In this document: positions 48,413-63,324 of the stretch, piece by piece | Layout: every line of letters starts with the position of its first letter | How positions within the stretch are numbered: the first letter of the stretch is position 1 | Origin: Candidatus Binatia bacterium | Lineage (GTDB): Bacteria; Desulfobacterota; Binatia; HRBIN30 | NCBI GenBank assembly: GCA_038245295.1 | Contig: JBBRSP010000011.1 | Coordinates: 32,001 to 96,000 of the forward strand | Direction: 5' to 3' | Length of the DNA: 64,000 nucleotides | The notes under the pieces: model-generated | The model's database searches: none | The model's input: only the letters and a program-made list of their open reading frames with translations | Told to the model about the DNA's origin: nothing | Made by a program: the position numbers and the translations under genes

Positions 48413-50713
48413 ATGCGGCATCATCTTGTTGTCTTCGGGGCGGTATTGGCGATTGCTTTATCTTCCTTGCAGGCCAATGCACTGACGATTCAGGAGTTCG
48501 CAAAGTGCCGCAAGGCCCTTGCGAATGGGACACGCGCTCTCGCGTTGAAAGTCATCATCGAGCAAGTAAAGTGTCACCAGAAACGCCTGCTGGGCACTGA
48601 CCCTGCCTACCCGCCGTCGCTCGACTGCAACACCATTACGTCTCTCCCCGTGAAAGCCCAAAACTCAATTTTGGCCAAAGAGCTGAAACTGACTACGTTG
48701 GCACAGAAGAAGTGTGACGCCGTACCCGATTTGTTGCCGGCATCGCAATTCGGTTACACGGTTTGTCTGGCATCGTCGCTGCCAGCGATGTTCCCCTGTC
48801 ACACGATACCGATCACCGCGAATTACAGCAGCGTTGCCGCCTGTTTGGCCTGCGAGGCCAAGGCCGATGCGACCTCGGCAACAATCGCGACGTACGGTGC
48901 TTTGCCCAATCCCCCGGTGCAAAGCGGCAAGACCCTTGCCTATAGCTGCCAGGACGGGATCGGTAAGAGTTATAAGGGCTATTTTGCGGCGCGCACCACG
49001 TTGGACCAGGCTTGCGAGTACAAGGTCGACCTTGGTACCCTCAATGGCGTCAACTGTCTTGCCTACGATCCGAAGTTGAAGATCGACAAGCAGCAGAACA
49101 AAGCGAACGACCGTATCGCGTTGGCCTGTAATGATGCGACGTTGGCGGCCCTGACGAGCTGCAGCTCGACTGAGGCCGGCGAGTTGGCTTGTTTCGACCA
49201 AGTTGCCAACGGGTTTACCGATTCGACGTTCTTCAACATCTACAACCCGCGTTCGCTCACCGCGACGCCGCTGCCCAGCTTTACCCCGACAGTCACGCCT
49301 ACACCCACCGTGACAGGGACCCCGACCGACACCGCGACGTCGACCGAGACGCCGACCGACACGTCGACACCGACGAGTACGGCGACACACACCCCGACCG
49401 TCACCCACACCTCGACGATCACTCAAACTTCGACCCGAACGCCAACAATCACGCGCACACCGACTGTGACGCGAACTGCCACACCGACCGACACCGGCAC
49501 ACCGACGGAGACACCGACGCCGACCGAGACAGAGATTCCCGGAGCGCCGACCCGAACACCGACCAACACGCCCACGGTAACGAGGACGGGAACGCCGACG
49601 CGGACACCGACGCCCACGGCGACGATTACCGATACACCGACGTCCACGGCGACGCCGACGCCGACATCGACCAGCACGTCGACAGGGACGCCGACGAGCA
49701 CCCCGACGAACACGTCGACCTCGACCGGAACACCTACGTCGACCTCGACCCCGACGGTGACCAATACAGCAACGATCACCGCGACGCCGACGCTGACGCC
49801 GTTGGCGAAGCTATGCACGCTTGGTGGCGGGTCAGCGAGTCAAGCGAGCATTCAATTTGACGCGAGCTACATCATCGTCAACATTGGACGTCCAACCTCG
49901 AATATCACTGGCAGCGTAGGTCTCGAGTTCTTCCCACAAGCGGTCGACGGGACGCGCGTCGTCAAGGTGCCCGGCTCCTCCGTCCATCTCAATCAGCTCG
50001 TCTTCAGCATTTCCGGCCTCGCCACGATCAACGCCTGTGTCTTGTCGCAGGTGGACGTCAACAATGTGCCGCTCGACGGATTCGGTACGATCGACTGCGA
50101 CGGCGGCGCACCAAACTACGACTATACGGTTGAGGTTGATCACAACACGTCGACAGCACCATCGACGCCTCCCGGTGGGTTCCCGCAAGACGCATCGTGC
50201 ACTCAAACCTTCATTGATCCGGTGACGGGTGGCACATCGTCGGCATGTCTGGAAGCCTCGGTGGCAACCTGCAATGCCAAGAATATCCACCTCGGAGTTT
50301 GCAACAGCGCGGTCCACACCACGTATGCTCAGCCGACACCGACACCACTACGTGCCTTCCCCCCCGGTGGTCTGACGATTCGTCTCCCGCTAGCCCTCAA
50401 GGTCCTCAGTAGTGGAACTTGTTCGAGTGGTGTCTTCGGCGCCACCGCTAACGTCGATGCCTTCCTGACCACGGGCCAAGCGCGTGGCATTGTCTACCAG
50501 TCGAATAACTCGACGAAGAAGATGGACGAGGGACAATCGGTCAAGGGCGGCACCGCGAAGACGCAAGTAACCGGAACTCCGCTCACGGCATTCTGCAGCA
50601 ATCCCACGGGCAGTACGCTCGCCGGATCGAAGATGGTGACGGCCTTCCCCGTGCTCGATCTCGATACAACCGCCGGTGATACGGTGGCGACGGTCGAGCT
50701 CACCTGCCAATAG
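48413..50713 (+). CDS. Secreted Cys-rich protein with long Pro/Thr linker
   Basis: Signal peptide ending ANA; Cys-patterned helical N-domain; TPT-rich linker ~49260-49800; beta-rich Cys-containing C-domain; GGGAG RBS. Confidence 0.85.
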
Positions 50714-50737
50714 GCCGATAGACGGTCAGTGCTTCAG

Positions 50738-50776
50738 AAGACCGCGGCGCACATCAGTGCGCCGCGGTCTTTTTTT
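50738..50776 (+). terminator. Intrinsic terminator
   Basis: 15-bp stem AAGACCGCGGCGCAC/GTGCGCCGCGGTCTT, loop ATCA, followed by a T-run. Confidence 0.88.
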
Positions 50777-50830: not shown

Positions 50831-53140
50831 ATGCAGGCGCGAAGCGGTCGGTTGTGGTGGGTTCTATTGGCGGCCGGTGCGACCATCGTCAGCGCAGCGG
50901 CGTCGGTGAATGCGGCGCCCTCTATCCAGGTCGGAACTGGGATCGGTGGCCCGGGCGGCCTCGTGGTAGTGCCGACATCCCTCTCCGGGAACGGCGCCGC
51001 CGTTGTTGCCACGAGCAGCGATATTTCGATCGACACATCGCGGTTCCTGCTGCGTACGTGTGCGATCAATCCAGGTCTGGTTGGTCCGCCGGCCAATGCG
51101 GTGTTCTCCGGCCCCACCCCATACTGCAGTAGCAGTGAGATCTTGTGTGCCGGCGATGCCGATTGTCCGCCAGCCGAACACTGCAATCGACTTCGCCTCA
51201 AGATCCAGAGTCAGACGAACTCGGTTGTTCCGGACGGTGAGCTTTTCCACTGCACGTTTGTCATCTTCGCGGCGACGCCACCCGGTGGTTATCCGCTGCA
51301 CAATCTTTCGACGGCAAGCGACGCGCTTGGATCGCTAACGACTACCTCGTTGGACGGTCAGATCCTGGTGATCAATGGGCTGACGCCGACGCCGACGTTC
51401 ACCCGGACGGCGACGCTGACGCGCACTCCGACCCCGACCGCGACGCGTACGGCGACGGCATCCTCGACCGCGACCGGTACGCGGACCGCAACTCGAACAC
51501 TCACGCGGACAGCCACAGGCGCACCGAGCTCGACGCTGACACCGTCGGTGGCGCTACCGCGTGTCCACCTCGATCTTGCCGGCGCTACCGGCGAGCCTGG
51601 AGCAACCCTTACGGTTGCGGCGACCCTTCTCGGCGAAGGCCTGTCCGTGGCGCGAACTTCCAATGACCTGATGTTTGACTCGGACCGATTCTCCGTGCGC
51701 AACTGCGCCATCAACCCGGTTCTTTCGGACATGACCCCAAATCAGCAGCTCACGGGTCCGTCGCTGCTGTGTGGTGAAACCGCCGTGGCCTGTAGCGGCG
51801 ACGCGCAGTGCCCGCTCGGCGAGCGTTGTCAACGCCTGCGTGTCGGGACGACCAATACCGGTGGATTGACGGTGCCGGATGGGTTTCTGTTTTCGTGCAC
51901 GTTTGTCATTTTTCCCGGTGCAGAGGCGGGTGTCTATCCGCTGGTAAATTTGGCTACGGCACGCGATGCGCAAAACGTCGTGCTCCCCGGTACGACCGGC
52001 AAGGATGGTGTGTTGAAGGTTGTCTTGCTTTTGTCCCCGACGCCGACGCCATCGTTGAGCCCGACGCCGTCGACGACGATGACACCGACGACCTCCCCGA
52101 CCGTATCGCGCACGGCCACGCCATCGAAGACGGCGACCTCGACACAGACATCCACGACGACCGGCACCGCGACTGTGACACGATCGCCGACGCGCACAGG
52201 CACCTCGACGCCAAGCGCGTCGGCAAGTCGGACGGAGACGGTTACCCGCACCCCAAGTGCGACCGCCTCGGCAACACCGAGCGCGACAGTGTCGCGAACC
52301 GCGACTGCCTCACCCTCGCCAACGGTGTCACGATCGACGACCCCGACACGATCGGCCACAGGCACGCCGACGGCGACGCTGACGCGGACGGACACTACAA
52401 CCTCGACGCCATCGCGGACCGCGACGGTGACGCGTACCGGCTCGCCGACGGCTTCATCCACCAAGCCGGCGACTCGATCGCCAACGTCGACGCCGACATC
52501 GGCATCGACATCGACATCAACCGCATTACCCACGGCGACCTTCACCACAACGCCGACTGTGACGTCGACCGCGACCCTGACACCGAGCTCGACGCTGACG
52601 GCGACGCCGATACCGAGCCCAACGGCAACGCTGACGGCGTCCGGTACACCCAGCCCGACGGCAAGTTCAACGTCGACGCCCAGCACCACGCCAACCAGTT
52701 CCCCGACCGCCCAGCCAACCCTGAGCTCAACCCCGACGCCTTTGCCGAGTCACAGCCCTACTGTGTCGGCGTCGCCGACGGAAAGCCCGACGCCATTGCC
52801 CACCGAGACTTCGACCGCGACCCCGGTGGCGACCGCGAGCCGTAGCCTCACGCCAACCGCTACTCCGACGCCCATCTCGACTGTCTCGGCAACCGTGAGC
52901 GCGACCACAACGGCGAGCCCCACGCTCAGCCCTACGGCGGTCGTGTTGTGCGTCGGTGACTGCGACGCGGATGGGATGGTGACGGTCGACGAAGTGTTGC
53001 GTCTGGTGCGTATTGCGATCGGCGAAGGACCGATTGGATTGTGTGCGGCCGGCGATGTCGACGGCAACGGTCTAGTGACGATCGAGGAGATCGTCCGCAG
53101 CGTTAACGTGGCGCTGGAAGGCTGCGACGCTGCGGGTTGA
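50831..53140 (+). CDS. Secreted scaffoldin-like protein: cohesin-like x2, Pro/Thr/Ser linker, C-terminal dockerin-like module
   Basis: Signal peptide; two homologous beta domains (G.PG..V.V...L ... CAINP ... LR ... PDG.LF.CTFVI ... G.YPL ... DG.I.V); C-terminal CVGDCDADGMVTVDE...GDVDGNGLVTIEE duplicated Ca-loop. Confidence 0.8.
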   Translation: MQARSGRLWWVLLAAGATIVSAAASVNAAPSIQVGTGIGGPGGLVVVPTSLSGNGAAVVATSSDISIDTSRFLLRTCAINPGLVGPPANAVFSGPTPYCSSSEILCAGDADCPPAEHCNRLRLKIQSQTNSVVPDGELFHCTFVIFAATPPGGYPLHNLSTASDALGSLTTTSLDGQILVINGLTPTPTFTRTATLTRTPTPTATRTATASSTATGTRTATRTLTRTATGAPSSTLTPSVALPRVHLDLAGATGEPGATLTVAATLLGEGLSVARTSNDLMFDSDRFSVRNCAINPVLSDMTPNQQLTGPSLLCGETAVACSGDAQCPLGERCQRLRVGTTNTGGLTVPDGFLFSCTFVIFPGAEAGVYPLVNLATARDAQNVVLPGTTGKDGVLKVVLLLSPTPTPSLSPTPSTTMTPTTSPTVSRTATPSKTATSTQTSTTTGTATVTRSPTRTGTSTPSASASRTETVTRTPSATASATPSATVSRTATASPSPTVSRSTTPTRSATGTPTATLTRTDTTTSTPSRTATVTRTGSPTASSTKPATRSPTSTPTSASTSTSTALPTATFTTTPTVTSTATLTPSSTLTATPIPSPTATLTASGTPSPTASSTSTPSTTPTSSPTAQPTLSSTPTPLPSHSPTVSASPTESPTPLPTETSTATPVATASRSLTPTATPTPISTVSATVSATTTASPTLSPTAVVLCVGDCDADGMVTVDEVLRLVRIAIGEGPIGLCAAGDVDGNGLVTIEEIVRSVNVALEGCDAAG

Positions 53141-53205
53141 ACGCATGCGGCTTCCAAAGTGTCGGCCGCTATGCTTGACGGCGACACAGTAGGAACATCC
53201 GACCA

Positions 53206-54195
53206 ATGGCAGGAATCCGCGATCATATTCGGTTTGATAGTGTGTGGTGGAGAAAGTTCGCTTACCTCGGGAGTGCGCATGCGCCGGAGTGGTTCAAGCG
53301 CGCTGCTCCGCCGGCAATTGGGGCGACGATCTTTGCTTTGGCGAGTGGGCGCCGAGAGGCGGCCATTGAAAACATGATGCGGGTCCTCGGCACCAACGAT
53401 CGCGTCGTGGCACGCCGAGTCGCACTTCAGATGTTCCAGTGCTTTGCCCAATGCCTGAGCGAAACCCTCGAAAGTTACGGTTTGGGGACGGAAGGCGTGC
53501 GCTGCGACACACCTGCGGTGAACCCGGTGGCCGAGGCCCTGGAGGCGGGGCGTGGCGCCATCCTGGTGACGGCACATCTTGGCAACTGGGACCTGGCAGC
53601 CCATGCAATCCAGCACCGTGGCCATGCCATCAACGTCGTCATGGGCCGAGAACCCAATGAGACGGCGCAGGGTTACGGACAGCAGGCCCGCGAGGCGGTT
53701 GGGGTGCGTGTCATTTATTCCGACACTTCGGTTTTCGCCTCTTTGAACATGATTCGCGCTCTGCAACGCAACGAAATCGTCGCGCTGCAACTCGACCGCC
53801 TGCAGGGGCCACGCATGGTCGCTCAAGAGGTCCCATTCTTTGGGCGCCCGACGCCGTTTCCCGTTGGCCCATTTGCCCTTGCGCGGCTCAGTGGGGCTCC
53901 GCTGATTCCGGTGTTTGTCCCACGTCGCGGCAGGCGCCATTACGAATTGAAAGTCGGACAGCCATACTATGTGCGCCGCGGCGGCGATCGCCAGACGTTA
54001 CGTCACGTGATGGTCGAAGTGGTGGCCTACCTGGAATTGATTATCCGCGAACACCCAGACCAGTGGTTCCAATTCGCGCCGTTCTGGCCGTCGGTGGATA
54101 GCCCGAGGATCGCCAACTGCGGCACGCCCCCAGACGGCCGCGGCGCTGAGCTGAACCAACCGGGACAATCCGAGCACGCTGCCAAGGTACGTTAG
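53206..54195 (+). CDS. Lysophospholipid/lipid A (LpxL/HtrB-like) acyltransferase
   Basis: GAILVTAHLGNWD (HxxxxD), VPFFG, GPF.LA, PDQWF. Confidence 0.88.
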   Translation: MAGIRDHIRFDSVWWRKFAYLGSAHAPEWFKRAAPPAIGATIFALASGRREAAIENMMRVLGTNDRVVARRVALQMFQCFAQCLSETLESYGLGTEGVRCDTPAVNPVAEALEAGRGAILVTAHLGNWDLAAHAIQHRGHAINVVMGREPNETAQGYGQQAREAVGVRVIYSDTSVFASLNMIRALQRNEIVALQLDRLQGPRMVAQEVPFFGRPTPFPVGPFALARLSGAPLIPVFVPRRGRRHYELKVGQPYYVRRGGDRQTLRHVMVEVVAYLELIIREHPDQWFQFAPFWPSVDSPRIANCGTPPDGRGAELNQPGQSEHAAKVR

Positions 54196-54224
54196 CGTTT
54201 CTTGCCCCTTCCGCCGTTCTTCCC

Positions 54225-54926
54225 ATGACGCAAGATCCAAGCAACATACGACCCGCCGTGCTGATTCCGGCTCTCGAGGCGGCTACAACACTTGATGCCG
54301 TCGTGCAGGGGTGCCGCGACCTCGGCTTCCATGTCCTGGTCGTCGATGACGGGTCCAGTGACGGTACCGCGGCGATCGGTCGGGCCGCTGGAGCGTCGGT
54401 CCTGGTTCACGAACGCAATCGCGGCAAGGGTGCGGCACTGATGTCCGGGATGCGGACACTGGCGAAAGAGGGATTCACGCACGCCGTAACCGTGGATGCG
54501 GACGGGCAGCATCTCCCTTGGGAAATCAATAAGTTAGTGCGGAGTGCCGAGCACCAACCGCGGGCCATCGTGCTGGGTGATCGCCAGATGGCCAGCATTA
54601 CTCAGGCGGCGCGTTCCAACCAGTTTGGCAACCGCTTCGCGAACCGTTGGGTGGAGATTGCCTGCGGCGTTGCCCTGCCCGACACCCAGTCCGGCCTACG
54701 AGTGTACCCGCTGCACGCCACATTGGGGCTCGGCCTGCGCGCGGATCGATTCGCCTTCGAAACGGAAGTGCTGATTCGGGCTGTGCGTCAGGGCATCCCG
54801 ATTACGTCTGTTCCCGTTGCCGTTTACTACCCGCCGGCGGACCAACGGACCAGCCACTTCCGTCGCATCGTCGACACGGTGCGCATCATCGGAGTCGTCC
54901 TCGGGTTGATCTTTCGGATCTGGTGA
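54225..54926 (+). CDS. Glycosyltransferase family 2 (DPM1-like)
   Basis: VVDDGSSDGT, NRGKGAAL, DADGQH, DTQSGLR, FETE. Confidence 0.9.
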   Translation: MTQDPSNIRPAVLIPALEAATTLDAVVQGCRDLGFHVLVVDDGSSDGTAAIGRAAGASVLVHERNRGKGAALMSGMRTLAKEGFTHAVTVDADGQHLPWEINKLVRSAEHQPRAIVLGDRQMASITQAARSNQFGNRFANRWVEIACGVALPDTQSGLRVYPLHATLGLGLRADRFAFETEVLIRAVRQGIPITSVPVAVYYPPADQRTSHFRRIVDTVRIIGVVLGLIFRIW

Positions 54927-55178
54927 CGCCTCAAAACCGACAAAATTTCCAACTGTTACCGGACAGAATCGCGTTGACAAGAGCTCGATACGGTGGCACC
55001 CTCGCGCAGTTTTTGTGTATGACCCCCATTCCGGCCCGCGGATGTGGGTTGGGTCGTGGGGATGTACGCACGCGACGGAAGTGCGAAAGATGGCGGTTCG
55101 GTGGGTGCCAGGTACCACCGGAAAGTCTGGAGCGAAATGGTGAAGAGAAGCCTTCAAATGTCTGAAGTGAGGTGCGGC

Positions 55179-57683
55179 ATGCGGCAGTTGACTACGCAAT
55201 TGGCGAGGGTCGGGTGTGCATTGGCCGTCACGGCGTCGATTGCCGCGGCACAAGTTGGTACCCCGACCCCGATCAGGTTGGTGAGCGCGAATTCCTCCGG
55301 CTTGGCCGGAAACGGCCCGAGCAACGGCATCGCCGTAAGTACCGATGGTGGGATCGCTGCGTTTTACTCTGACGCGACCGATCTGGTGCCCGGCGATACG
55401 AATCAGATGCGCGACGTTTTTGTGCGAGATCTCAGCACGGGGCTCACTGAGCGTGTTAGCGTCAGCAGTAGCGGTGCCCAGGCAAACGGTGTCAGTCACA
55501 ATGCCTACGGTGGAGTGGCCATTTCTGGAAACGGACAGATTGTCGCGTTCTACTCCCAGGCCAGCAATCTTGTGGCGAACGATACGAACCGTTTTGCTGA
55601 CGTATTTGTTCGTCTGCGCGGATCCAGTTCGACGCAGCGAGTAAGTGTCGCTTCGGACGGTACCGAGGCCAACGGAGCGAGCGTTCTGCCGAGCATCAGT
55701 GCCGATGGTCGCTATGTCGTATTTCAGTCGGAAGCATCAAATCTCGTCGCCGGTGACACGAATCGGGTTACCGATATCTTCGTTCACGATCGGGTGACGG
55801 GCACGACGACGCGCGTTTGCAACGTCCAAGGTGACCTCTCGAGCTCGACGCCAGTGATCAGCGCGGACGGCAGCACCATAGCCTTTGCTTCTTCGGCGAC
55901 GAACCTCGTAAGCGACGATACCAACAATCATCTTGACATCTTTGTCTGCGACCGGGTGTCCGGCGTGCCTGAGCGAATCAGTCTTTCGTCGAGTCAGGAC
56001 GAAGGCAACGGAGACAGTATCTTACCGGCCCTCAGCGCCACCGGTCGTTTCGTCGGCTTCAAATCGCTTGCGGACAATCTGGTCGATGGCGATCGCAATG
56101 GATCCGTTGACGTCTTTGTTCGTGATCGACAAATGGGCAAGACGGAACGGATCTCGGTTGGTGTCAACGGTGGCGACTCTTCCGACGTGAACTTCCCGCC
56201 TACTCTCAGCAATGATGGTCGGTTCGTTGCGTTTGCTTCTTTTGCCAACAACCTGATCCAAAACGATTACAACCATTCCGTCGACGTCTTTGTTCGTGAC
56301 CGGCAGATCGGCGTCACCGTTGCGGTGCGTAACGACGCCGGCGACTTGCCAAACGGCAGCGCGCCGGACGTACCACCGAGCATCAGCGGCGACGGCAAGC
56401 AGGTCGGCTTCACGTCGCTTGCGACAAATCTTGTGGTTCCAGATCGCAATGAAGCGACCGACTCTTTCGTTGCAACCAACCCCTTCTATGGGCCGGGAAG
56501 CTGCCCCGACGGCACATGCCCCGACGGCAATGTCTGTGTTGCTGGATTCTGCGCGGTTCCGACCAAGACGCCGACGATCACGCGTACACCGACGCCGACC
56601 AAGACCGGCACGGCAACCAAGACACCGACCCCGACAGCAACCTTCCGGAGCTGTACGGATGACAGCCAATGCCGCGCCGACGAACACTGCCGCGCCGGGT
56701 TCTGCAAGAAGAAGCGCCCGTGCGACGACACCGATCCGACGATTGATCGGTTGGCGTGTTTTGGCGATCGTGAGACGTGTATCGACAACCTCTGCGAGTG
56801 TGGCGGGGATTGTAACCGCGACGGGGTTGTCCTGACCAACGAGATCACGAAGGCCGTGTTGATCCTGGCGGGAATCGAACCCATCACCAGTTGCACGGCG
56901 GCGGACATCAACTCTGACGGACAAGTGTTGGGCAACGAAATTACACTGTCTGTCATCAACCTGGGCGAGGGCTGCACGCAAGAGGGGCAACCGCTGATGT
57001 TCGCCCACGACCGTGGGGAGAAGGTCGCCCTGAAGGTTTCCTCCGGTACGAGCGGGCAGGGCAGCACGATCCCGGTGACGGTCGATATGTCCGGTGGCGG
57101 CGGCGACGTGGCCACGGCGCAGATCGATCTGCTGTTTGACCCGACCGTCTTGCACGTGCCCAATCCAGGTGCCGCCTGCCACCTCGACGATCGCTTGGCG
57201 TCCAACCACATTCTGGCGGCGACAATCACGGATACACCACCGGCCCCTCCGGGGTTGGCGCGTTTGCGCTTGTTCGTCGGAGACATTGTGGCTCCGATCG
57301 ACACCTTTGCCGACGGCCGCCTGGTGACGTGTGAGTTCGAAGTGGCGGCCGAGGCTCAACCCGGTATGTCGTTCGTCGTCGGTGATCGCCTGAACATCGG
57401 CGATGCACGCGGCAGCGTTTTCGATGCGGAGACGGTTGACGGCAGCGTCACGGTTTCTGGTCCGGCTGCCACCCCGACCCCAGCGGCTGGCGTGACGTGC
57501 GCTGGTGACTGCGACGGCGACGGCGAAGTCTTCGGGAATGAAATCACACAAGCGGTGCGGATTCTCGCCGGTGAAGCGCCACGGGCGGAGTGCGAAGCGG
57601 CCGACGCGGATGGTGATGGCGAAGTCTTCGTGACCGATGTCACGCAGGCCATCATGCATCTCGGACGCGGTTGTCCCCGCTAG
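55179..57683 (+). CDS. Secreted TolB/WD40-like beta-propeller protein with Cys-rich region, dockerin-like, cohesin-like and second dockerin-like module
   Basis: Repeated IS.DG..VAF.S.A.NLV..DTN...DVFV.D blades; PT linkers; CGGDCNRDG... and CAGDCDGDG... modules flanking a cohesin-like domain; GAGG RBS before ATG 55179. Confidence 0.85.
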   Translation: MRQLTTQLARVGCALAVTASIAAAQVGTPTPIRLVSANSSGLAGNGPSNGIAVSTDGGIAAFYSDATDLVPGDTNQMRDVFVRDLSTGLTERVSVSSSGAQANGVSHNAYGGVAISGNGQIVAFYSQASNLVANDTNRFADVFVRLRGSSSTQRVSVASDGTEANGASVLPSISADGRYVVFQSEASNLVAGDTNRVTDIFVHDRVTGTTTRVCNVQGDLSSSTPVISADGSTIAFASSATNLVSDDTNNHLDIFVCDRVSGVPERISLSSSQDEGNGDSILPALSATGRFVGFKSLADNLVDGDRNGSVDVFVRDRQMGKTERISVGVNGGDSSDVNFPPTLSNDGRFVAFASFANNLIQNDYNHSVDVFVRDRQIGVTVAVRNDAGDLPNGSAPDVPPSISGDGKQVGFTSLATNLVVPDRNEATDSFVATNPFYGPGSCPDGTCPDGNVCVAGFCAVPTKTPTITRTPTPTKTGTATKTPTPTATFRSCTDDSQCRADEHCRAGFCKKKRPCDDTDPTIDRLACFGDRETCIDNLCECGGDCNRDGVVLTNEITKAVLILAGIEPITSCTAADINSDGQVLGNEITLSVINLGEGCTQEGQPLMFAHDRGEKVALKVSSGTSGQGSTIPVTVDMSGGGGDVATAQIDLLFDPTVLHVPNPGAACHLDDRLASNHILAATITDTPPAPPGLARLRLFVGDIVAPIDTFADGRLVTCEFEVAAEAQPGMSFVVGDRLNIGDARGSVFDAETVDGSVTVSGPAATPTPAAGVTCAGDCDGDGEVFGNEITQAVRILAGEAPRAECEAADADGDGEVFVTDVTQAIMHLGRGCPR

Positions 57684-57716
57684 GTTCGGGCCATGGACGT
57701 TCTAGGAGGCAACACG

Positions 57717-59210
57717 ATGAGGAATCGGATGCAGAAGACCGGGTACCGGGTGGCCGTAGCGGCATCGCTCGCGGCCTTGTTGGTAGGTCCGGCGTCGGCA
57801 GTAGTTACGATTCAGGTGTCGACCAGCGACGGCGCACCCGGTGGAACGGTGATCCTTGGGTTGGGGCTGCGCCGCGACCCAGGTGACCGTTCGGTGGCAA
57901 CGGCGCAGACCGATGTGATTGTCCAGACAAACCAAATGAAGTTGGTTGGTACTTGTGCCGGGACGACGCAGGCCTGTTCGGCGGCCGACGAGTGCGGCGA
58001 ATCGGGCACCTGCACCTTGCCCTGTGAGAAGGAAGCGCGTCTAACCCAGCATAGCTTCGCAGCGACGCTACCCGCGTTTCAGAATTTGCCGGCGGGGCAG
58101 CAGCGCTTCAGAATGGCGATCGTCGACACGCAGTTCCCGATCGACACACTGACCGACGGGGCGCTGGCTACCTGCGTGCTGCATGTCCCGGACAACGCGG
58201 CATTGGCACCTCTGATCGTGACTACCGATCGCCTGAACGTTGGCGACGAACGCGGCAATGTCGTGCCGGCCGAAGTGGAGATCGCTGCTGGTATGATCAA
58301 GTTGCGAACTCCCACGCCGACCGCCACGATTACGCAGACGCTGGCGCCCTCGGCAACAGCGACGCCGGTTGGGACCCTGCCGACGTCTACACCAACTCCG
58401 ACGCGAACCGGAGGCAGCCCGACTCCGGATACAGCTCCCTGTCCGGCTCAGCGACCTGCGCCCTCGGGCCCAGCTCTTTATGTCGCCGACCAGACGTTGG
58501 CGGCGGGCGCCACGAGTGGGACGATCGAAGTGCGACTAGCGGCTTCCGATAGCCAGGTTGCCGGGACTCAAAATGATCTCGAGTTGCCGGCGAATATCCG
58601 GATCAAGGCGAAGGCGAATGGTCGCCCGGATTGCACCGTAAATAGTGCCATCAACAAGGGGGGGACCTCGTTTGCCTTCCGGCCCACAGGCTGTAATCCC
58701 GCGGCCGGCGAATGCTCGGTACGGGCTCTCGTCTTGTCGACGGAAGATACGAACCCGATCACACTCGATCTGCTCTACAGTTGCAACGTGACCGTCGCCA
58801 GCCGTGGCGGCGGGGTCGCGGTTACGGGAGTGATCCTCAGCACGCCAGAAGGCACGCGTGTTCCCGGAGCTAGCGGACGCAGTGGTGTGATCTGTGTTGA
58901 GGCATCGATAACTCCGACGCCGACGCCGACGCCGAGTTCGAGGCCTGCCACTCCCACGCCGACCATCACGGTTCGTACGCCGGCGACGCTTACTCCAACG
59001 ACGGTTGCGACGGCGACATCGACGGTGCGGGCGACAGCCACCCGCACACTCATCCCGGCGACCAATACGCCAGCACTCAACAACGGTGGTGGCGGCGGCG
59101 GTGGTGGATGCAACTGCGCCGTTTCGCCAGCGGAGGCGGCTAACGGCCTGTCTTCGATGTGGCTCGCCTTGCCGGCGCTGCTCCTGCAGTGGCGTCGTCG
59201 TCGGCGCTAG
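57717..59210 (+). CDS. Secreted anchoring scaffoldin-like protein: cohesin-like x2, PT linkers, MYXO-CTERM-like sorting tail
   Basis: AGGAGG RBS; signal peptide ending ASA; GAPGGTV...VATAQTD and VAGTQNDL...C.VN..INK...LLYSCNV domains; tail GGGGGGGCNC..hydrophobic..WRRRRR. Confidence 0.8.
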   Translation: MRNRMQKTGYRVAVAASLAALLVGPASAVVTIQVSTSDGAPGGTVILGLGLRRDPGDRSVATAQTDVIVQTNQMKLVGTCAGTTQACSAADECGESGTCTLPCEKEARLTQHSFAATLPAFQNLPAGQQRFRMAIVDTQFPIDTLTDGALATCVLHVPDNAALAPLIVTTDRLNVGDERGNVVPAEVEIAAGMIKLRTPTPTATITQTLAPSATATPVGTLPTSTPTPTRTGGSPTPDTAPCPAQRPAPSGPALYVADQTLAAGATSGTIEVRLAASDSQVAGTQNDLELPANIRIKAKANGRPDCTVNSAINKGGTSFAFRPTGCNPAAGECSVRALVLSTEDTNPITLDLLYSCNVTVASRGGGVAVTGVILSTPEGTRVPGASGRSGVICVEASITPTPTPTPSSRPATPTPTITVRTPATLTPTTVATATSTVRATATRTLIPATNTPALNNGGGGGGGGCNCAVSPAEAANGLSSMWLALPALLLQWRRRRR

Positions 59211-59330: not shown

Positions 59331-60665
59331 GTGAAACATTTGAAGGAGAGCTTTGATCGCCGCTCTGCGGTGGTGGGGATCATCGGCCTAGGATATGTCG
59401 GGCTCCCCCTGGCGGCTACGTTCGCCGAATCCGGGTTTTCGGTTGTTGGCTTCGACATCGATCCGAGCAAGGTCGACGAGCTGCTTGCCGGGCGGAGCTA
59501 CATTCGCCACATTCCAGCCGAACGGATCCAGCCGCTGCTCCGGTCTCAAGCGGCGCCGCCCGGTCAACCCGGCTTTTTCCCGACAACCGACTTCGCGCTG
59601 TTGAGTGGGTGCGACGCCATCCTGATCTGCGTTCCGACGCCGCTCACGCAGAACCGTGAGCCCGACCTCTCGTACGTAACCAGTACGGCGGAAGCGATTG
59701 CCCGTCACCTCCGTAGCGGACAGCTCGTCGTGTTGGAGAGCACGACCTACCCGGGAACGACCGACGAGGTTGTCCGCGATACCCTCGAAGCTGGCGGCCT
59801 GCGTCTTGGCAAAGATTTTTTCCTCGCCTACTCCCCGGAGCGCGAAGATCCGAACAACGCGCTGTTCAACACGCGCTCCATTCCAAAGTTGGTGGGTGGC
59901 TGTACCCCGCTTTGTGGTGAGCTCGCATCGGCTCTTTACGCCGCCGTATTGGATCGCGTCATTACCGTCTCATCGGCGCGCGTCGCCGAGTCCGCCAAGC
60001 TCCTCGAGAACATTTATCGTTGCGTCAACATTGCCTTGGTCAATGAGCTTAAGGTCCTGTTCGACCGCATGGATATCGATGTCTGGGAAGTCATCGACGC
60101 AGCGGCCACGAAGCCTTTCGGGTTCACCCCATTCTACCCGGGGCCCGGCCTCGGCGGTCATTGTATTCCGATCGATCCGTTCTACCTCACGTGGAAGGCG
60201 CGCCAGTACGAGCTCACGACGCGCTTCATCGAGTTGGCTGGGGAGGTCAACCAGGGGATGCCGGCCTTCGTCATCACTAAAATTATGGAGGCGTTGAACG
60301 ACCGCGGTCGCAGCCTGAAGGGCTCGCGTGTTCTCGTTCTCGGTGTTGCCTACAAGCGCGACCTCGATGATACCCGCGAATCCCCGGCGCTGAAGCTGAT
60401 CGAACTGTTGATTCGCAAGGGCGCTGACGTTTGTTACCACGATCCTTACGTTCCGGCCTTGAAGCCGTCGCGACATTATGATTTTAACATGTGTGCTGTG
60501 AGCTTGACTCGCGAGGAGATGTGCGGCGCAGACGTAGTGGTCATCGCAACGGACCACACGTCCTACGACTACCAGCAGGTCGTGGAAGCCAGTCGGCTCG
60601 TAGTCGACACGCGCAATGCCACGCGGGGTGTAACATCGGGACGCGAGAAGATCGTCCGCGCTTGA
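59331..60665 (+). CDS. Nucleotide-sugar dehydrogenase (UDP-GlcNAc/ManNAc 6-dehydrogenase, WbpA/WecC-like)
   Basis: IGLGYVGLPLA, CVPTP, ESTTYPGTT, SPEREDP, KLLEN, GPGLGGHCIPIDP, GVAYK...D.RESP, DTRN. Confidence 0.93.
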   Translation: MKHLKESFDRRSAVVGIIGLGYVGLPLAATFAESGFSVVGFDIDPSKVDELLAGRSYIRHIPAERIQPLLRSQAAPPGQPGFFPTTDFALLSGCDAILICVPTPLTQNREPDLSYVTSTAEAIARHLRSGQLVVLESTTYPGTTDEVVRDTLEAGGLRLGKDFFLAYSPEREDPNNALFNTRSIPKLVGGCTPLCGELASALYAAVLDRVITVSSARVAESAKLLENIYRCVNIALVNELKVLFDRMDIDVWEVIDAAATKPFGFTPFYPGPGLGGHCIPIDPFYLTWKARQYELTTRFIELAGEVNQGMPAFVITKIMEALNDRGRSLKGSRVLVLGVAYKRDLDDTRESPALKLIELLIRKGADVCYHDPYVPALKPSRHYDFNMCAVSLTREEMCGADVVVIATDHTSYDYQQVVEASRLVVDTRNATRGVTSGREKIVRA

Positions 60666-60940: not shown

Positions 60941-62056
60941 ATGCGAACGGTGAAGTGGAACCTATTACTCTCAGGCCTCGTAGGAATGGCGGCCCTGGGA
61001 GTCGTGGCGTCAGGGGTGCAGGCTGACGTCACTTCGGAGAAGGCGGCTTCGATCCTCATCTTTCCAGCCGTCACAACGGCGGAGCAATTTGGGACCCCGA
61101 CAGATACGGTCATCCAGATTGCAAACACGAGCAACTCGATGGTTCACGCCCACTGTAACTATGTGGATGCGAGCCGCTTCGACAGCATCACGGGGCAGCC
61201 GTGCAACCTTCCTAGCCCGAGCTGCATCGCAGCCTGGCAGGAAACTGACTTCGACATTTGGCTCACCAAGCAACAGCCAACCCACTGGGTTGTGAGCACT
61301 GGTCGCCGTGTTGATCCGACGGACGGTTTCGACCTAAACGGGTCTGGCTTCGATCCTGGGCATGTCCCGCCGATGGCGAACTTCAGCGGTGAGCTCAAGT
61401 GTGTCGAGGTTACAGCCTCGGGTGAGCCCGTCGCTGGTAATCACCTCAAGGGTGAAGCCGAGATCGTTCTGCCTAGCGAGGCTGGAGACATCTCCAAGTA
61501 CAATGCAATCGGCATTGAGGCGAACCCGGATGCGACGCCGGCGAATCCTTTGCTGCTCGACGGGAATGTGTACAACGCCTGTCCTGCCAAGCTCTGGTAC
61601 AACCATGCGGCTGATGATTCCGACACGATCTCCCAGATCGGGGCACCGACGACCAACCGTGTTGGCGCGGTACTGGTCCCTTGCAGCGAAGACTTCGAGA
61701 ATCAGATTCCGAAAAGCGTTACGGTCCAGTTCAAGGTCTACAACGAGTTCGAAGAGGTCTTCTCGGCGAGCACCACCGTCACTTGTCTCCTCTCGACGGT
61801 TCTCTCGGATATCGACAGCCCGAGCAACAACAGCGCTTCGGTGTTCAACGAAGCCGTCCTTGGAACTCCGTTTGCGATGTCGGTCATCACGCCGGTGGCG
61901 CAGCCAGACGGTAGCTCGGGCGGAGTGGTAGGCATCGGCCTCCATGCCTTGTACCAAGGCGGACAGGTCGCGCTTGCGGCAACCAGCCTCCACGGCACTG
62001 GCGACCTGGTTCCTGCGGCGGGCCCAGATTCAATCTATCTGGCCCCTCGTGAGTAA
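60941..62056 (+). CDS. Secreted hypothetical protein (paralog A), candidate major surface/S-layer protein
   Basis: AAAGGAGG RBS; signal peptide ending VQA-D; collinear similarity to 62109-63260. Confidence 0.85.
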   Translation: MRTVKWNLLLSGLVGMAALGVVASGVQADVTSEKAASILIFPAVTTAEQFGTPTDTVIQIANTSNSMVHAHCNYVDASRFDSITGQPCNLPSPSCIAAWQETDFDIWLTKQQPTHWVVSTGRRVDPTDGFDLNGSGFDPGHVPPMANFSGELKCVEVTASGEPVAGNHLKGEAEIVLPSEAGDISKYNAIGIEANPDATPANPLLLDGNVYNACPAKLWYNHAADDSDTISQIGAPTTNRVGAVLVPCSEDFENQIPKSVTVQFKVYNEFEEVFSASTTVTCLLSTVLSDIDSPSNNSASVFNEAVLGTPFAMSVITPVAQPDGSSGGVVGIGLHALYQGGQVALAATSLHGTGDLVPAAGPDSIYLAPRE

Positions 62057-62108
62057 TCTCGAGCGCAACGTGCCAACGCACTCGTTTAGGACCGAAAGGA
62101 GAAGGGCA

Positions 62109-63260
62109 ATGCGTACGGTGAAGTGGAATGCCATGCTCTCGAGCGCGGTCTGCGCTCTAGGGGGTATCGCGGTGTGGTCAGGGGTGGCGCGCGCTGATGT
62201 CTCGTCAACCAACCCGGCAGCGATCCTCGTTTTTCCGAAACTCGTTTTCAGCACGGGCGCATCGACCGACACGATCGTTCAGGTGTCGAACACCGCCAAC
62301 CATCCGGTTAACGTTCGCTGCTTCTATGTCAATGCAAATGGGCACTGCTCGAACAACCCCAGCTCGATCTGTGATCCGTACACCCTCGAAGGTTCGACTT
62401 CGTGTGGCAGCACGGGCTTCTGCATCCCTGGCTGGCAAGAGACGGACTTTGCGTTCCGTCTGACCTCCAACCAACCGATTGCCTGGCCGCTCAGCGCCGG
62501 TGCTGCGAACTTGCCGCTGGCCGACCGCTCTGGCCCGACTGGCGAGTTTAACTCGGGTTCGATTCCTCCAGCCCCTGAAGACCCCATCCAAGGCGAGCTC
62601 AAGTGTATCGAAGTCGGCGACGACGAGCTTCCTGTCGATCAGAACGACCTTATCGGCAACGCGTCGATTGAGGCGCACCGCACTGGAGCGGCCGTCGATA
62701 TCCGCAGCTATAATGCGACCGGCATTCAGGCGATCGAGGGCGCGAACAATCGTGACAACACGCTTGTCCTCGGCACCGAGTACAATGGTTGCCCGAATAT
62801 CTTGGTTCTCGACAACTGGTTTGACAACGCCATTCATCCAGTGACGGGTGCCCAGATGCGCAGCGAAGTGACATTCGTTCCTTGCTCGGAAGACTTCAAC
62901 TTCCAAGCCCCGCAGCCGGTTACTGTCCAGTACCTGGTTTTCAACGAGTTTGAGCAACGCTTCTCGACGAGCAAGCCGGTTACCTGCTTCCAGGAGATCC
63001 AGCTCTCGGACATCGATACGCGTCTTGGACCGACCGATGACCGCTTCTCGATCTTCAACGTTAACGTGCAAGGCACATTGACCGGCCAGACGACCGCTCG
63101 CGGCGTCCAGACCAGCTCTCAGACCAGCGGCACGGGATTGTTGGCGGTCTTGGAGGAGTTCTCGAACGGCCGCTCAGCAGCCAGCGAGGCGCATCAGCGT
63201 GGTACCCGTACCCAGCGTGATGTGATCCTTCTCCCGTCTGCCCAGCCGTCGGGTCTCTAG
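62109..63260 (+). CDS. Secreted hypothetical protein (paralog B), candidate major surface/S-layer protein
   Basis: AAAGGAG RBS; same MRTVKWN start; shared WQETDF, GELKC, VPCSEDF, NEFE..FS motifs. Confidence 0.85.
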   Translation: MRTVKWNAMLSSAVCALGGIAVWSGVARADVSSTNPAAILVFPKLVFSTGASTDTIVQVSNTANHPVNVRCFYVNANGHCSNNPSSICDPYTLEGSTSCGSTGFCIPGWQETDFAFRLTSNQPIAWPLSAGAANLPLADRSGPTGEFNSGSIPPAPEDPIQGELKCIEVGDDELPVDQNDLIGNASIEAHRTGAAVDIRSYNATGIQAIEGANNRDNTLVLGTEYNGCPNILVLDNWFDNAIHPVTGAQMRSEVTFVPCSEDFNFQAPQPVTVQYLVFNEFEQRFSTSKPVTCFQEIQLSDIDTRLGPTDDRFSIFNVNVQGTLTGQTTARGVQTSSQTSGTGLLAVLEEFSNGRSAASEAHQRGTRTQRDVILLPSAQPSGL

Positions 63261-63291: not shown

Positions 63292-63324
63292 AAGGGGGGC
63301 CGCGCTTTGCGCGGTCCCCCTTTT
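63292..63324 (+). terminator. Intrinsic terminator
   Basis: AAGGGGGGCCGCGC-TTT-GCGCGGTCCCCCTTTT. Confidence 0.8.

Follow-up and report, generated by a model that had tools for sequence, protein, structure and literature searches.

A cohesin-bearing locus of a Binatia bacterium as a probable docking node of an order-wide system for holding exported proteins on the cell surface

We describe here a locus of cohesin and dockerin-like modules from Candidatus Binatia bacterium (assembly GCA_038245295.1; 6.63 Mb, 96.6% complete). It lies in a 64,000-nucleotide stretch of contig JBBRSP010000011.1 (positions 32,001 to 96,000; the whole stretch is called the window, and coordinates count from its first letter). 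Its three scaffold genes, 50831, 55179 and 57717 (named after their first positions), encode cohesins together with dockerin-like modules, and we are moderately confident that the locus constitutes one docking node of an order-wide system that would hold exported proteins on the cell surface. Because some 155 exported proteins of many kinds carry the plug, this bacterium likely uses the dockerin–cohesin pair as a general hanger for enzymes, cytochromes and adhesins on its surface, not for the digestion of cellulose. The first-pass annotation had described three co-oriented secreted proteins that follow cellulosome logic within one locus. The open reading frames (ORFs; 769, 834 and 497 aa, all on the + strand, each with a signal-peptide-like N-terminus when read by eye) were found as claimed, and the cohesin folds and the anchor stood up to analysis, but the reading was too narrow, the locus appearing as one node of a genome-wide and order-wide system.

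Two beta domains were modelled with AlphaFold2 and compared with solved structures: the second cohesin of 57717, and the cohesin within a three-module model (dockerin–cohesin–dockerin) of 55179. The models identify both as true cohesins with a nine-stranded jelly-roll fold. The former aligned with 6kgc_A over 124 residues (Z 14.3, root-mean-square deviation (rmsd) 2.2); its top 20 matches among 48,161 chains were all cohesins (Z 14.3 to 10.3), the next, a non-cohesin, followed at Z 9.1, and Foldseek concurred that solved cohesins are its nearest relatives. For the latter, 6kgf_C aligned over 141 residues (Z 18.9, rmsd 2.0), and the top 20 of the 48,161 chains were again all cohesins, from Z 18.8 down to Z 12.5, ahead of a non-cohesin at Z 10.5. 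Unrelated immunoglobulin (Ig) folds, which the first-pass annotation had named as the case that would overturn its cohesin assignment, are thus rejected, the best matches of both models being cohesins. The two cohesins of 50831 and cohesin 1 of 57717 are assigned by hidden Markov model (HMM) and tree rather than by fold.

The Pfam cohesin profile PF00963 gave a divided answer, as 55179 scored 28.5 bits over a cut-off of 24.1, whereas 57717 reached 12.4 and 50831 had no match; 12 of 51 common-class cohesins matched it at E 0.1. Since Pfam recognises only the 55179 modules over cut-off, profiles were built from the genome itself, and none of them found a single match on reversed ORFs. Searched against the PDB, the profile of the 51 common-class cohesins retrieved cohesins of Ruminococcus flavefaciens first (5n5p, E 4e-7). 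In ScaB cohesin 5 of that species (5N5P), Ala775, Ala777 and Gln778 contact the dockerin, according to the accessible part of the report (PMC5934362), and the strand-3 motif of the common class lines up with these three residues in a sequence alignment, as distinct from a complex model. The Gln is conserved in 96% of the 51 cohesins, a strand-3 Asp in 88% and a strand-6 Arg in 90%; the dockerin-contact residues that the alignment predicts on the 8-3-6-5 sheet are, then, conserved.

The plug modules are less certain than the cohesins. They consist of two Ca-loop–helix repeats 32 residues apart with near-invariant cysteines, and we regard them as disulfide-stapled loop–helix pairs, for which 'dockerin-like' seems the appropriate term. 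Dockerins, unlike EF-hands, have no helix before the first loop, and in the three-module model of 55179 the helices fall at residues 15–25, 47–55, 248–258 and 280–288, none of them before the first loop.

What suggests that such a module tethers proteins to the surface? The best functional evidence comes from two cytochrome families in which dockerin and lipobox exclude each other. A decaheme MtrC/F-like cytochrome of this genome starts with a dockerin, and orthologues were detected in 33 of 52 genomes. Among the best 25 of these 33 loci, ten encode a signal peptide and a dockerin without a lipobox, 14 a lipobox without a dockerin, and one is cut short; on a tree of the decaheme core four changes are needed, at least two of which are forced by strong branches. 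In a di-haem family (30 loci from the 33 genomes matched), 26 proteins carry a dockerin, one a frameshifted dockerin, two a lipobox and one an N-terminal membrane helix. Genome-wide, another anchor (lipobox- or CTERM-like) accompanies 9 of 135 dockerin proteins as against 21 of 97 comparable exported proteins (Fisher p 0.0012), a heuristic comparison: lipoboxes were read by eye or picked with a rough rule, and the genome-wide anchor rule was noisy, missing the tail of 57717 and flagging several false cysteines. From these comparisons we would say that the dockerin-like module does the job of a membrane anchor. A module in that role needs a membrane-bound receptor, and anchored cohesins are the evident candidate for the receptor of dockerin-tagged cargo. 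The decaheme gene itself lies in the span L159:10687-17419 (contig C5), where it is followed by a 512-aa beta-barrel-like ORF and three multiheme cytochromes, possibly a porin–cytochrome electron-transfer cluster.

How would such a receptor reach the surface? The 57717 protein ends in a MYXO-CTERM sorting signal (59100..59207, + strand) made up of a Cys motif, a transmembrane helix and an Arg tail, which passes the TIGR03901 cut-off (22 bits over 20; five matches in the genome pass it), and whose Cys465 is invariant in 15 of 15 aligned rows; the anchor role proposed earlier for 57717 is borne out by this tail. A myxosortase core (NF040914; C3:111556-111855, L163) scores 102.1 bits over a cut-off of 100; the myxosortase also exceeds it in a second genome of the order, and when 81 genomes were sampled across the phylum, 6 had a match over that cut-off. 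The genome further encodes a type II secretin (TIGR02517, 555 bits over 351), which indicates an outer membrane and hence the diderm host that the first-pass annotation had assumed. In Myxococcus, myxosortase cleaves the MYXO-CTERM tail and anchors the protein on the surface, as stated in the accessible text of PMC11980579, and by analogy 57717 may share this fate.

Comparison across relatives points to the 55179–57717 pair as the conserved unit of the locus. The first gene of the pair, 55179 (55179..57683, + strand), carries a predicted beta-propeller of seven TolB-like repeats (55266..56483, + strand, approximate limits; PF07676, seven PD40 repeats counted). A Cys-rich stretch follows, then dockerin 1 (56799..56984, + strand) of a private 'GNE' class, which moves as a block with the following cohesin, then this internal cohesin of the private class CohB (57036..57455, + strand), and finally dockerin 2, again of the private class (57498..57680, + strand; assigned by profile). 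Pfam matches over cut-off, for cohesin as given above and for PF00404 (Dockerin_1) at 24.5 bits over 22.9, agree with the order of propeller, dockerin, cohesin and dockerin that had been read from the sequence. Its partner 57717 (57717..59210, + strand) has the make-up of an anchoring scaffoldin: a signal peptide, a CohB-class cohesin with a Cys-rich insert (cohesin 1, 57804..58304, + strand), a common-class (CohA) cohesin (cohesin 2, 58482..58898, + strand; predicted local distance difference test (pLDDT) score of the model 89.7) and the MYXO-CTERM signal. Profiles, the fold of cohesin 2 and the TIGR03901 match all concur with the earlier description of two cohesin-like domains and a membrane-sorting tail.

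The two genes adjoin in 32 of 34 loci from two families, which is not an unbiased rate because the loci were chosen by similarity. One of the two absences is a contig edge, and the other a paralogue (L220) with a common-class dockerin 2, for which the 15 kb analysed contains no anchor gene. All 32 paired loci encode cohesin 1 in their anchor gene, and seven of the 32 encode cohesin 2 as well. In two genomes (loci L149 and L238) the dockerin 1–cohesin block has been relocated into the anchor gene, and two close paralogues of the 55179 propeller bear a CTERM-like tail in place of dockerins.

The pair also appears to use modules of its own. In the cohesin tree, a quick reconstruction with support from SH-aLRT (a Shimodaira–Hasegawa-like version of the approximate likelihood ratio test) only, the 55179 cohesin and 57717 cohesin 1 form a clade with their orthologues (CohB; 31 of 99 rows, SH-aLRT 96), and a CohB profile built from relatives only scores them at 131.8 and 173.7 bits, with the next cohesin of the genome at 27.1. 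Likewise, the 55179 dockerins score 49 and 46 bits better on their own model than on the common one, a gain that amounts to 3 bits for the next of the 123 common-class modules. At loop positions 9–11 they typically show hydrophobic-Gly-Asn, as opposed to Thr-Val/Ile-Asp in the common class; positions 10–11 set specificity in clostridial dockerins. By profile and tree, 57717 cohesin 1 and the 55179 cohesin thus represent a private cohesin class without other members in the genome, and the 55179 dockerins a matching private class of their own.

Which dockerin would fit which cohesin? Over 31 loci, distances among dockerin 2 sequences correlate more closely with those of the anchor cohesin than with those of the internal cohesin (partial r 0.59 vs 0.39; 0.40 vs 0.02 when fully controlled; preference positive in 99.8% of subsamples), and dockerin 1 shows no preference (0.60 against 0.61), all of these being mirror-tree correlations that ignore relatedness and are hence weak. 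Dockerin 2 is therewith a likely tether to 57717 cohesin 1, and the dockerin 1–cohesin unit of 55179 may be self-closed or may link neighbouring molecules. The first-pass annotation had imagined a protein with two dockerins and a cohesin polymerising into a branched mesh; this is possible but unsupported, as dockerin 2 tracks the anchor cohesin and not the internal one, and one tether plus one dockerin–cohesin unit fits these comparisons better than a branching monomer with two plugs and one socket.

The reach of the system becomes apparent genome-wide, where a count of dockerin-bearing proteins and their cargo domains had been proposed. The common class comprises 123 modules in 122 ORFs; a broader profile adds 19 modules and a third class another 15, for a dockerin-bearing total of 155 ORFs. 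Cohesins number 35 in 21 ORFs, or 36 with 57717 cohesin 1, which that profile missed, and 11 ORFs carry both modules. Besides 57717, the multi-cohesin scaffoldins with a predicted surface anchor include a three-cohesin MYXO-CTERM protein (C12) and a five-cohesin lipoprotein with a lipobox (C31); a six-cohesin scaffoldin is encoded on C21. Pfam was run on 152 of the 161 listed cohesin or dockerin ORFs (eight of the nine omitted are shorter than 500 aa). Of those scanned, 81 match no named family other than cohesin, dockerin or EF-hand, 28 are of propeller type, five are peptidases over cut-off, five are c-type cytochromes and two are glycoside hydrolases (GH10 and GH44, both dockerin-tagged). 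Cargo is therefore mostly non-carbohydrate-active, as anticipated. The stricter claim that there are no carbohydrate-active enzymes holds for the scaffold genes but not for the span as a whole, which includes a GT2 glycosyltransferase, nor for the genome with its two tagged hydrolases.

Within a class-wide sample, the common dockerin occurs in 14 of 14 genomes of the same order, with at least 52 copies in 11 of them and 11–14 in three, and in 4 of 106 genomes of other orders, with one or two copies each. Cohesins occur in the same 14 of 14 (5–34 each) and in 3 of the 106, two outside genomes having both modules. As kin are not independent, this co-expansion counts as one expansion and not as a statistic.

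Together, these observations suggest the following mechanism. The tail of 57717 would be cleaved, and the protein would receive a lipid anchor and be transported to the outer surface, as in Myxococcus. The C-terminal dockerin of 55179 would plug, in a Ca-dependent manner, into 57717 cohesin 1 and so display the propeller, while dockerin 1 and the internal cohesin would act as a unit, by mutual closure or by linking neighbours. Cohesin 2 of 57717, like the C12 and C31 anchors, would bind the common-class dockerin of about 120 cargo proteins, among them adaptors such as 50831, which would lift two more cohesins on its 300-residue stalk. The dockerin would, in short, be a swappable surface anchor, equivalent to a lipobox. 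The idea of a modular surface coat or display system thus gains support as to display, the three-gene frame being too narrow for a system that spans an order. A bolder version, to which we give little credence at present, has one Binatia order using cohesin and dockerin as its general surface-anchoring route. Sockets on a small number of lipid anchors, together with plugs of several orthogonal classes, would build a swappable coat of more than 100 proteins, among them MtrC/F-like decahemes that would repeatedly have given up a lipid anchor in favour of a dockerin, as electron-transfer proteins seated on a scaffoldin and possibly exchanged between cells. The present locus would be the private structural node of such a coat, with 55179 joined head to tail by its dockerin 1–cohesin unit into a tethered lattice.

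Several points weigh against the docking-node reading. To the rough anchor calls, the selected loci, the indifference of dockerin 1 and the relatedness-blind correlations already mentioned come a myxosortase score barely over its cut-off and the absence of a match to either pair query in the three family f2 genomes. In addition, there are roughly four dockerins for every cohesin, and just 18 of the 155 dockerin ORFs have a cohesin within 5 kb, so that partners are unreadable from gene order. A further challenge concerns the plug itself: Pfam finds EF-hand_1 in 87 of 104 common dockerins and Dockerin_1 in only 22 (PF00404 has 18 matches in the genome), such that the proposed dockerin check succeeded for 55179 but returned mostly EF-hand_1 for the common class, including the module of 50831. 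Sequence searches of the PDB rank EF-hand proteins above dockerins, and loop position 12, usually Asp in dockerins, is Glu here. Cohesin matches, moreover, filled all three structure-search lists of the three-module model, leaving the dockerin fold unmatched on its own, and the NCBIfam model of GC-type dockerins matched only one of the 104 common-class members (E 0.051). Could the 'dockerin' be an EF-hand-like Ca tag for folding, secretion or glycan and S-layer binding that does not engage these cohesins, the latter being spacers or adhesins? The EF-hand scores speak for it, as does the occurrence of cohesin-like sandwiches as modules of Clostridium perfringens hydrolases (2vo8, 2w1n). Yet both modules expand in the same order and 11 ORFs carry both, a private cohesin class meets a private dockerin class in one locus, contact positions are conserved, and in the model no helix precedes the first loop; altogether we deem this explanation decidedly improbable. 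Slightly easier to entertain, though still improbable, is a scaffold whose modules bind but which would co-locate enzymes away from the cell surface, either in the periplasm or at the inner membrane's outer face. TolB-like propellers of other bacteria are periplasmic, as are relatives of a di-haem peroxidase-like protein and of the MbnP-family protein beside it, both dockerin-tagged here, and 57717 would stay in the inner membrane if its C-terminal helix remained uncleaved. An outside location would, on the other hand, suit cargo such as GH10, GH44, proteases and the MtrC/F-like decaheme, and MYXO-CTERM proteins are surface-anchored in Myxococcus (PMC11980579, accessible text), with myxosortase and secretin both encoded in the present genome.

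A further possibility, unlikely in our estimate but worth more thought than the preceding two, is that 55179 also polymerises, its dockerin 1 (giving chains) or both dockerins (giving a branched mesh) binding the cohesin of the next molecule, with 57717 pinning the resulting coat. Two families conserve the dockerin 1–cohesin unit together with its linker, and the block is mobile, as seen in L149 and L238. In this genome both dockerins share the GNE motif and both cohesins belong to one class, which makes cross-binding plausible, and the pair sits amid envelope genes, 5′ of two conserved exported proteins. Against symmetric branching stand the tracking of the anchor cohesin by dockerin 2 and, in family f3, loop motifs that differ between the two 55179-type dockerins; with some 15 residues of linker, dockerin 1 might also fold back onto the cohesin of its own chain. 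The predicted template-modelling score (pTM) of 0.70 for the three modules fits one dockerin sitting on the cohesin, without telling which one, or whether in cis or in trans. Finally, a conventional cellulosome with its enzymes encoded elsewhere in the genome seems to us hardly credible. Multi-cohesin scaffoldins and two dockerin-tagged glycoside hydrolases are present, and the system would pass the loose screen of PMC11557425 as far as the accessible text defines it. But glycoside hydrolases make up just 2 of 152 scanned ORFs, none of the genome's three GH5 ORFs is in the dockerin lists, and neither GH9 nor CBM3 (PF00942, 0 matches) was found in the 96.6% complete genome, with positive controls for both; GH48 gave no match either, in a search in which no control genome matched. 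We therefore reject the cellulosome, whose cargo would be dominated by plant-wall glycoside hydrolases.

How does the docking node proposed here relate to known systems? With the cellulosome scaffoldins (type I–III) of Clostridia and Ruminococcus it shares the cohesin jelly-roll, the strand-3 motif of ScaB cohesin 5, architectures of the anchor, adaptor and cargo type, what look like several specificity classes and more than 100 dockerin proteins. It differs in its diderm host, in MYXO-CTERM or lipoprotein anchors rather than SLH or sortase signals, in disulfide-stapled modules with Glu at loop position 12, and in a repertoire without CBM3 or GH9 and with 2 glycoside hydrolases in 152. If the predicted binding occurs, it would work like a cellulosome in assembly while lacking a cellulosome's cargo, and it fits the known non-cellulosomal kind of cohesin scaffold with mainly non-cellulolytic cargo. 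Three such cases are compared here from the accessible parts of the respective reports. The 'planctosome' of freshwater Phycisphaerae is a proposed, itself untested, non-cellulolytic anchor–adaptor–cargo system in a diderm (PMC6461901), with a single-cohesin anchor, one adaptor and peptidase cargo; the present system has scaffoldins with several cohesins, cargo of many types and another kind of anchor. ANME archaea and their partner sulfate reducers encode scaffoldin-like proteins with up to five cohesins and non-CAZyme cargo (PMC9012536, PMC10553843); multi-cohesin scaffoldins, such cargo and proposed surface attachment are common to both, but their cargo is mainly ABC substrate-binding and S-layer proteins, and dockerin-tagged multiheme cytochromes, MYXO-CTERM anchors and an anchor swap go unmentioned in those accessible parts. 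Ca. Stygibacter (Cloacimonadota), likewise diderm, combines a scaffoldin with mixed glycosidase and peptidase cargo (PMC8542988), yet has one large CBM-bearing scaffoldin, few cargo proteins and a different C-terminal anchor. With the MYXO-CTERM/myxosortase system the Binatia genome shares the Cys motif, membrane helix and Arg tail, the myxosortase core and the type II secretin; in contrast to Myxococcus sorting, few MYXO-CTERM anchors (five genome matches) would here serve many cargo proteins. The accessible text of the preprint that built the myxosortase model (bioRxiv 10.1101/2023.06.07.544157) makes no mention of cohesin, dockerin or Binat-, and a literature search combining Binatota or Binatia with dockerin returned nothing relevant, its scope excluding subscription journals and supplements, which may mention the domains.

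The role of non-cellulosomal cohesins and dockerins is a long-standing question, and the published cases compared here were inferred from domain lists. The mutual replacement of dockerin and lipid anchor in two families offers a comparative test that points to function, and the modules are small and suited to expression and direct assay. Should binding hold, a widespread uncultured diderm lineage would possess a cellulosome-sized, non-cellulolytic display tied to myxosortase and surface electron transfer, and disulfide-stapled orthogonal cohesin–dockerin pairs would become available for display in Gram-negative hosts.

The remaining scaffold gene, 50831 (50831..53140, + strand), has the architecture of an adaptor-type scaffoldin: a signal peptide, a cohesin, a Pro/Thr linker, a second cohesin, a Thr/Ser/Pro stalk and a common-class dockerin-like module. 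Its cohesin-like domains, each with a Cys-rich insert, lie at 50930..51370 and 51575..52021 (both + strand; 80.7 and 93.6 bits with the genome-built HMM), and in the tree domain 2 clusters with domain 1 and two C46 cohesins. The terminal module (DocA; 52949..53134, + strand; 81 bits, two Ca-loop–helix repeats) has three conserved Cys positions and a terminal GC, and Atlas places it at 0.96 with a cluster that is 80% PF00404. Profiles and a linker of 303 aa (71% T/P/S) confirm the two cohesin-like domains, the linker of about 300 aa and the terminal dockerin-like module reported before. The adaptor role is a different matter, since the architecture suits it, but the gene has no fixed partner and its dockerin is of the common, not the 55179, class. 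Among 51 relatives, one encodes a two-cohesin orthologue, which there adjoins the 55179 orthologue on its upstream side, and from this distribution 50831 is an optional neighbour and not a fixed partner of the 55179–57717 pair; a self-contained three-gene scaffold was rejected on the grounds that 50831 is seldom present in relatives.

Nor is 50831 contiguous with 55179. Between them lie an LpxL-like acyltransferase (53206..54195, + strand; PF03279, 102 bits), taken here as an intervening gene, and the GT2 glycosyltransferase (54225..54926, + strand; PF00535), which also occurs upstream of the 55179 orthologue in two relatives (loci L146 and L238). A nucleotide-sugar dehydrogenase (59331..60665, + strand) is usually found 3′ of the pair in relatives, and two paralogous exported proteins of no known family (60941..63260, + strand) are conserved downstream of it. 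The latter count among 15 paralogous ORFs that are arranged in tandem arrays, with paralogues on contigs C4, C13 and C40; in Atlas they join unnamed clusters at 0.97 (the best one for 60941 being mostly Binatota), the nearest named cluster being the S-layer protein Slr4 at only 0.76, and they are candidate coat or S-layer proteins. Scans of the locus for promoters and terminators came out at chance level (5 against 3.3 and 10 against 12.6, respectively), and long hairpins were noted at 50736-50773 and 63292-63322. Upstream, 48413-50713 encodes an exported Cys-rich protein with a long Pro/Thr linker and without a Pfam family, which has five partial paralogues in the genome; a hairpin of 17 pairs separates this gene from 50831.

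Elsewhere in the genome, further docking loci came to light. A second conserved cluster (L062:7302-11620 on C12; also L123-L132, L001, L002 and L005) is found in three families and consists of an FG-GAP propeller–dockerin protein, a 330-aa dockerin protein of no family and a MYXO-CTERM anchor with one to three cohesins, probably the main common-class anchor. The four-gene cluster L074:5311-14206 (C21) contains a divergent cohesin class on a long branch; it encodes a dockerin–cohesin–CTERM protein, a protein of six cohesins and a terminal dockerin-like module, a cohesin–dockerin protein and a third-class dockerin protein. A scaffoldin of three cohesins and a dockerin (L071:6054-8876, C18) has its 5′ end in another frame, which may reflect an assembly error or a broken gene. 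The third dockerin class (15 ORFs, e.g. L079:1-3126 and L105:4938-7094) is without a typical first loop, and its modules often come after a carboxypeptidase-regulatory-like domain and are then followed by a conserved extension. Lastly, the adjoining di-haem peroxidase-like and MbnP-family genes at L068:17209-19563 (C15), both with a common dockerin, might represent an enzyme–substrate pair co-located by a scaffold.

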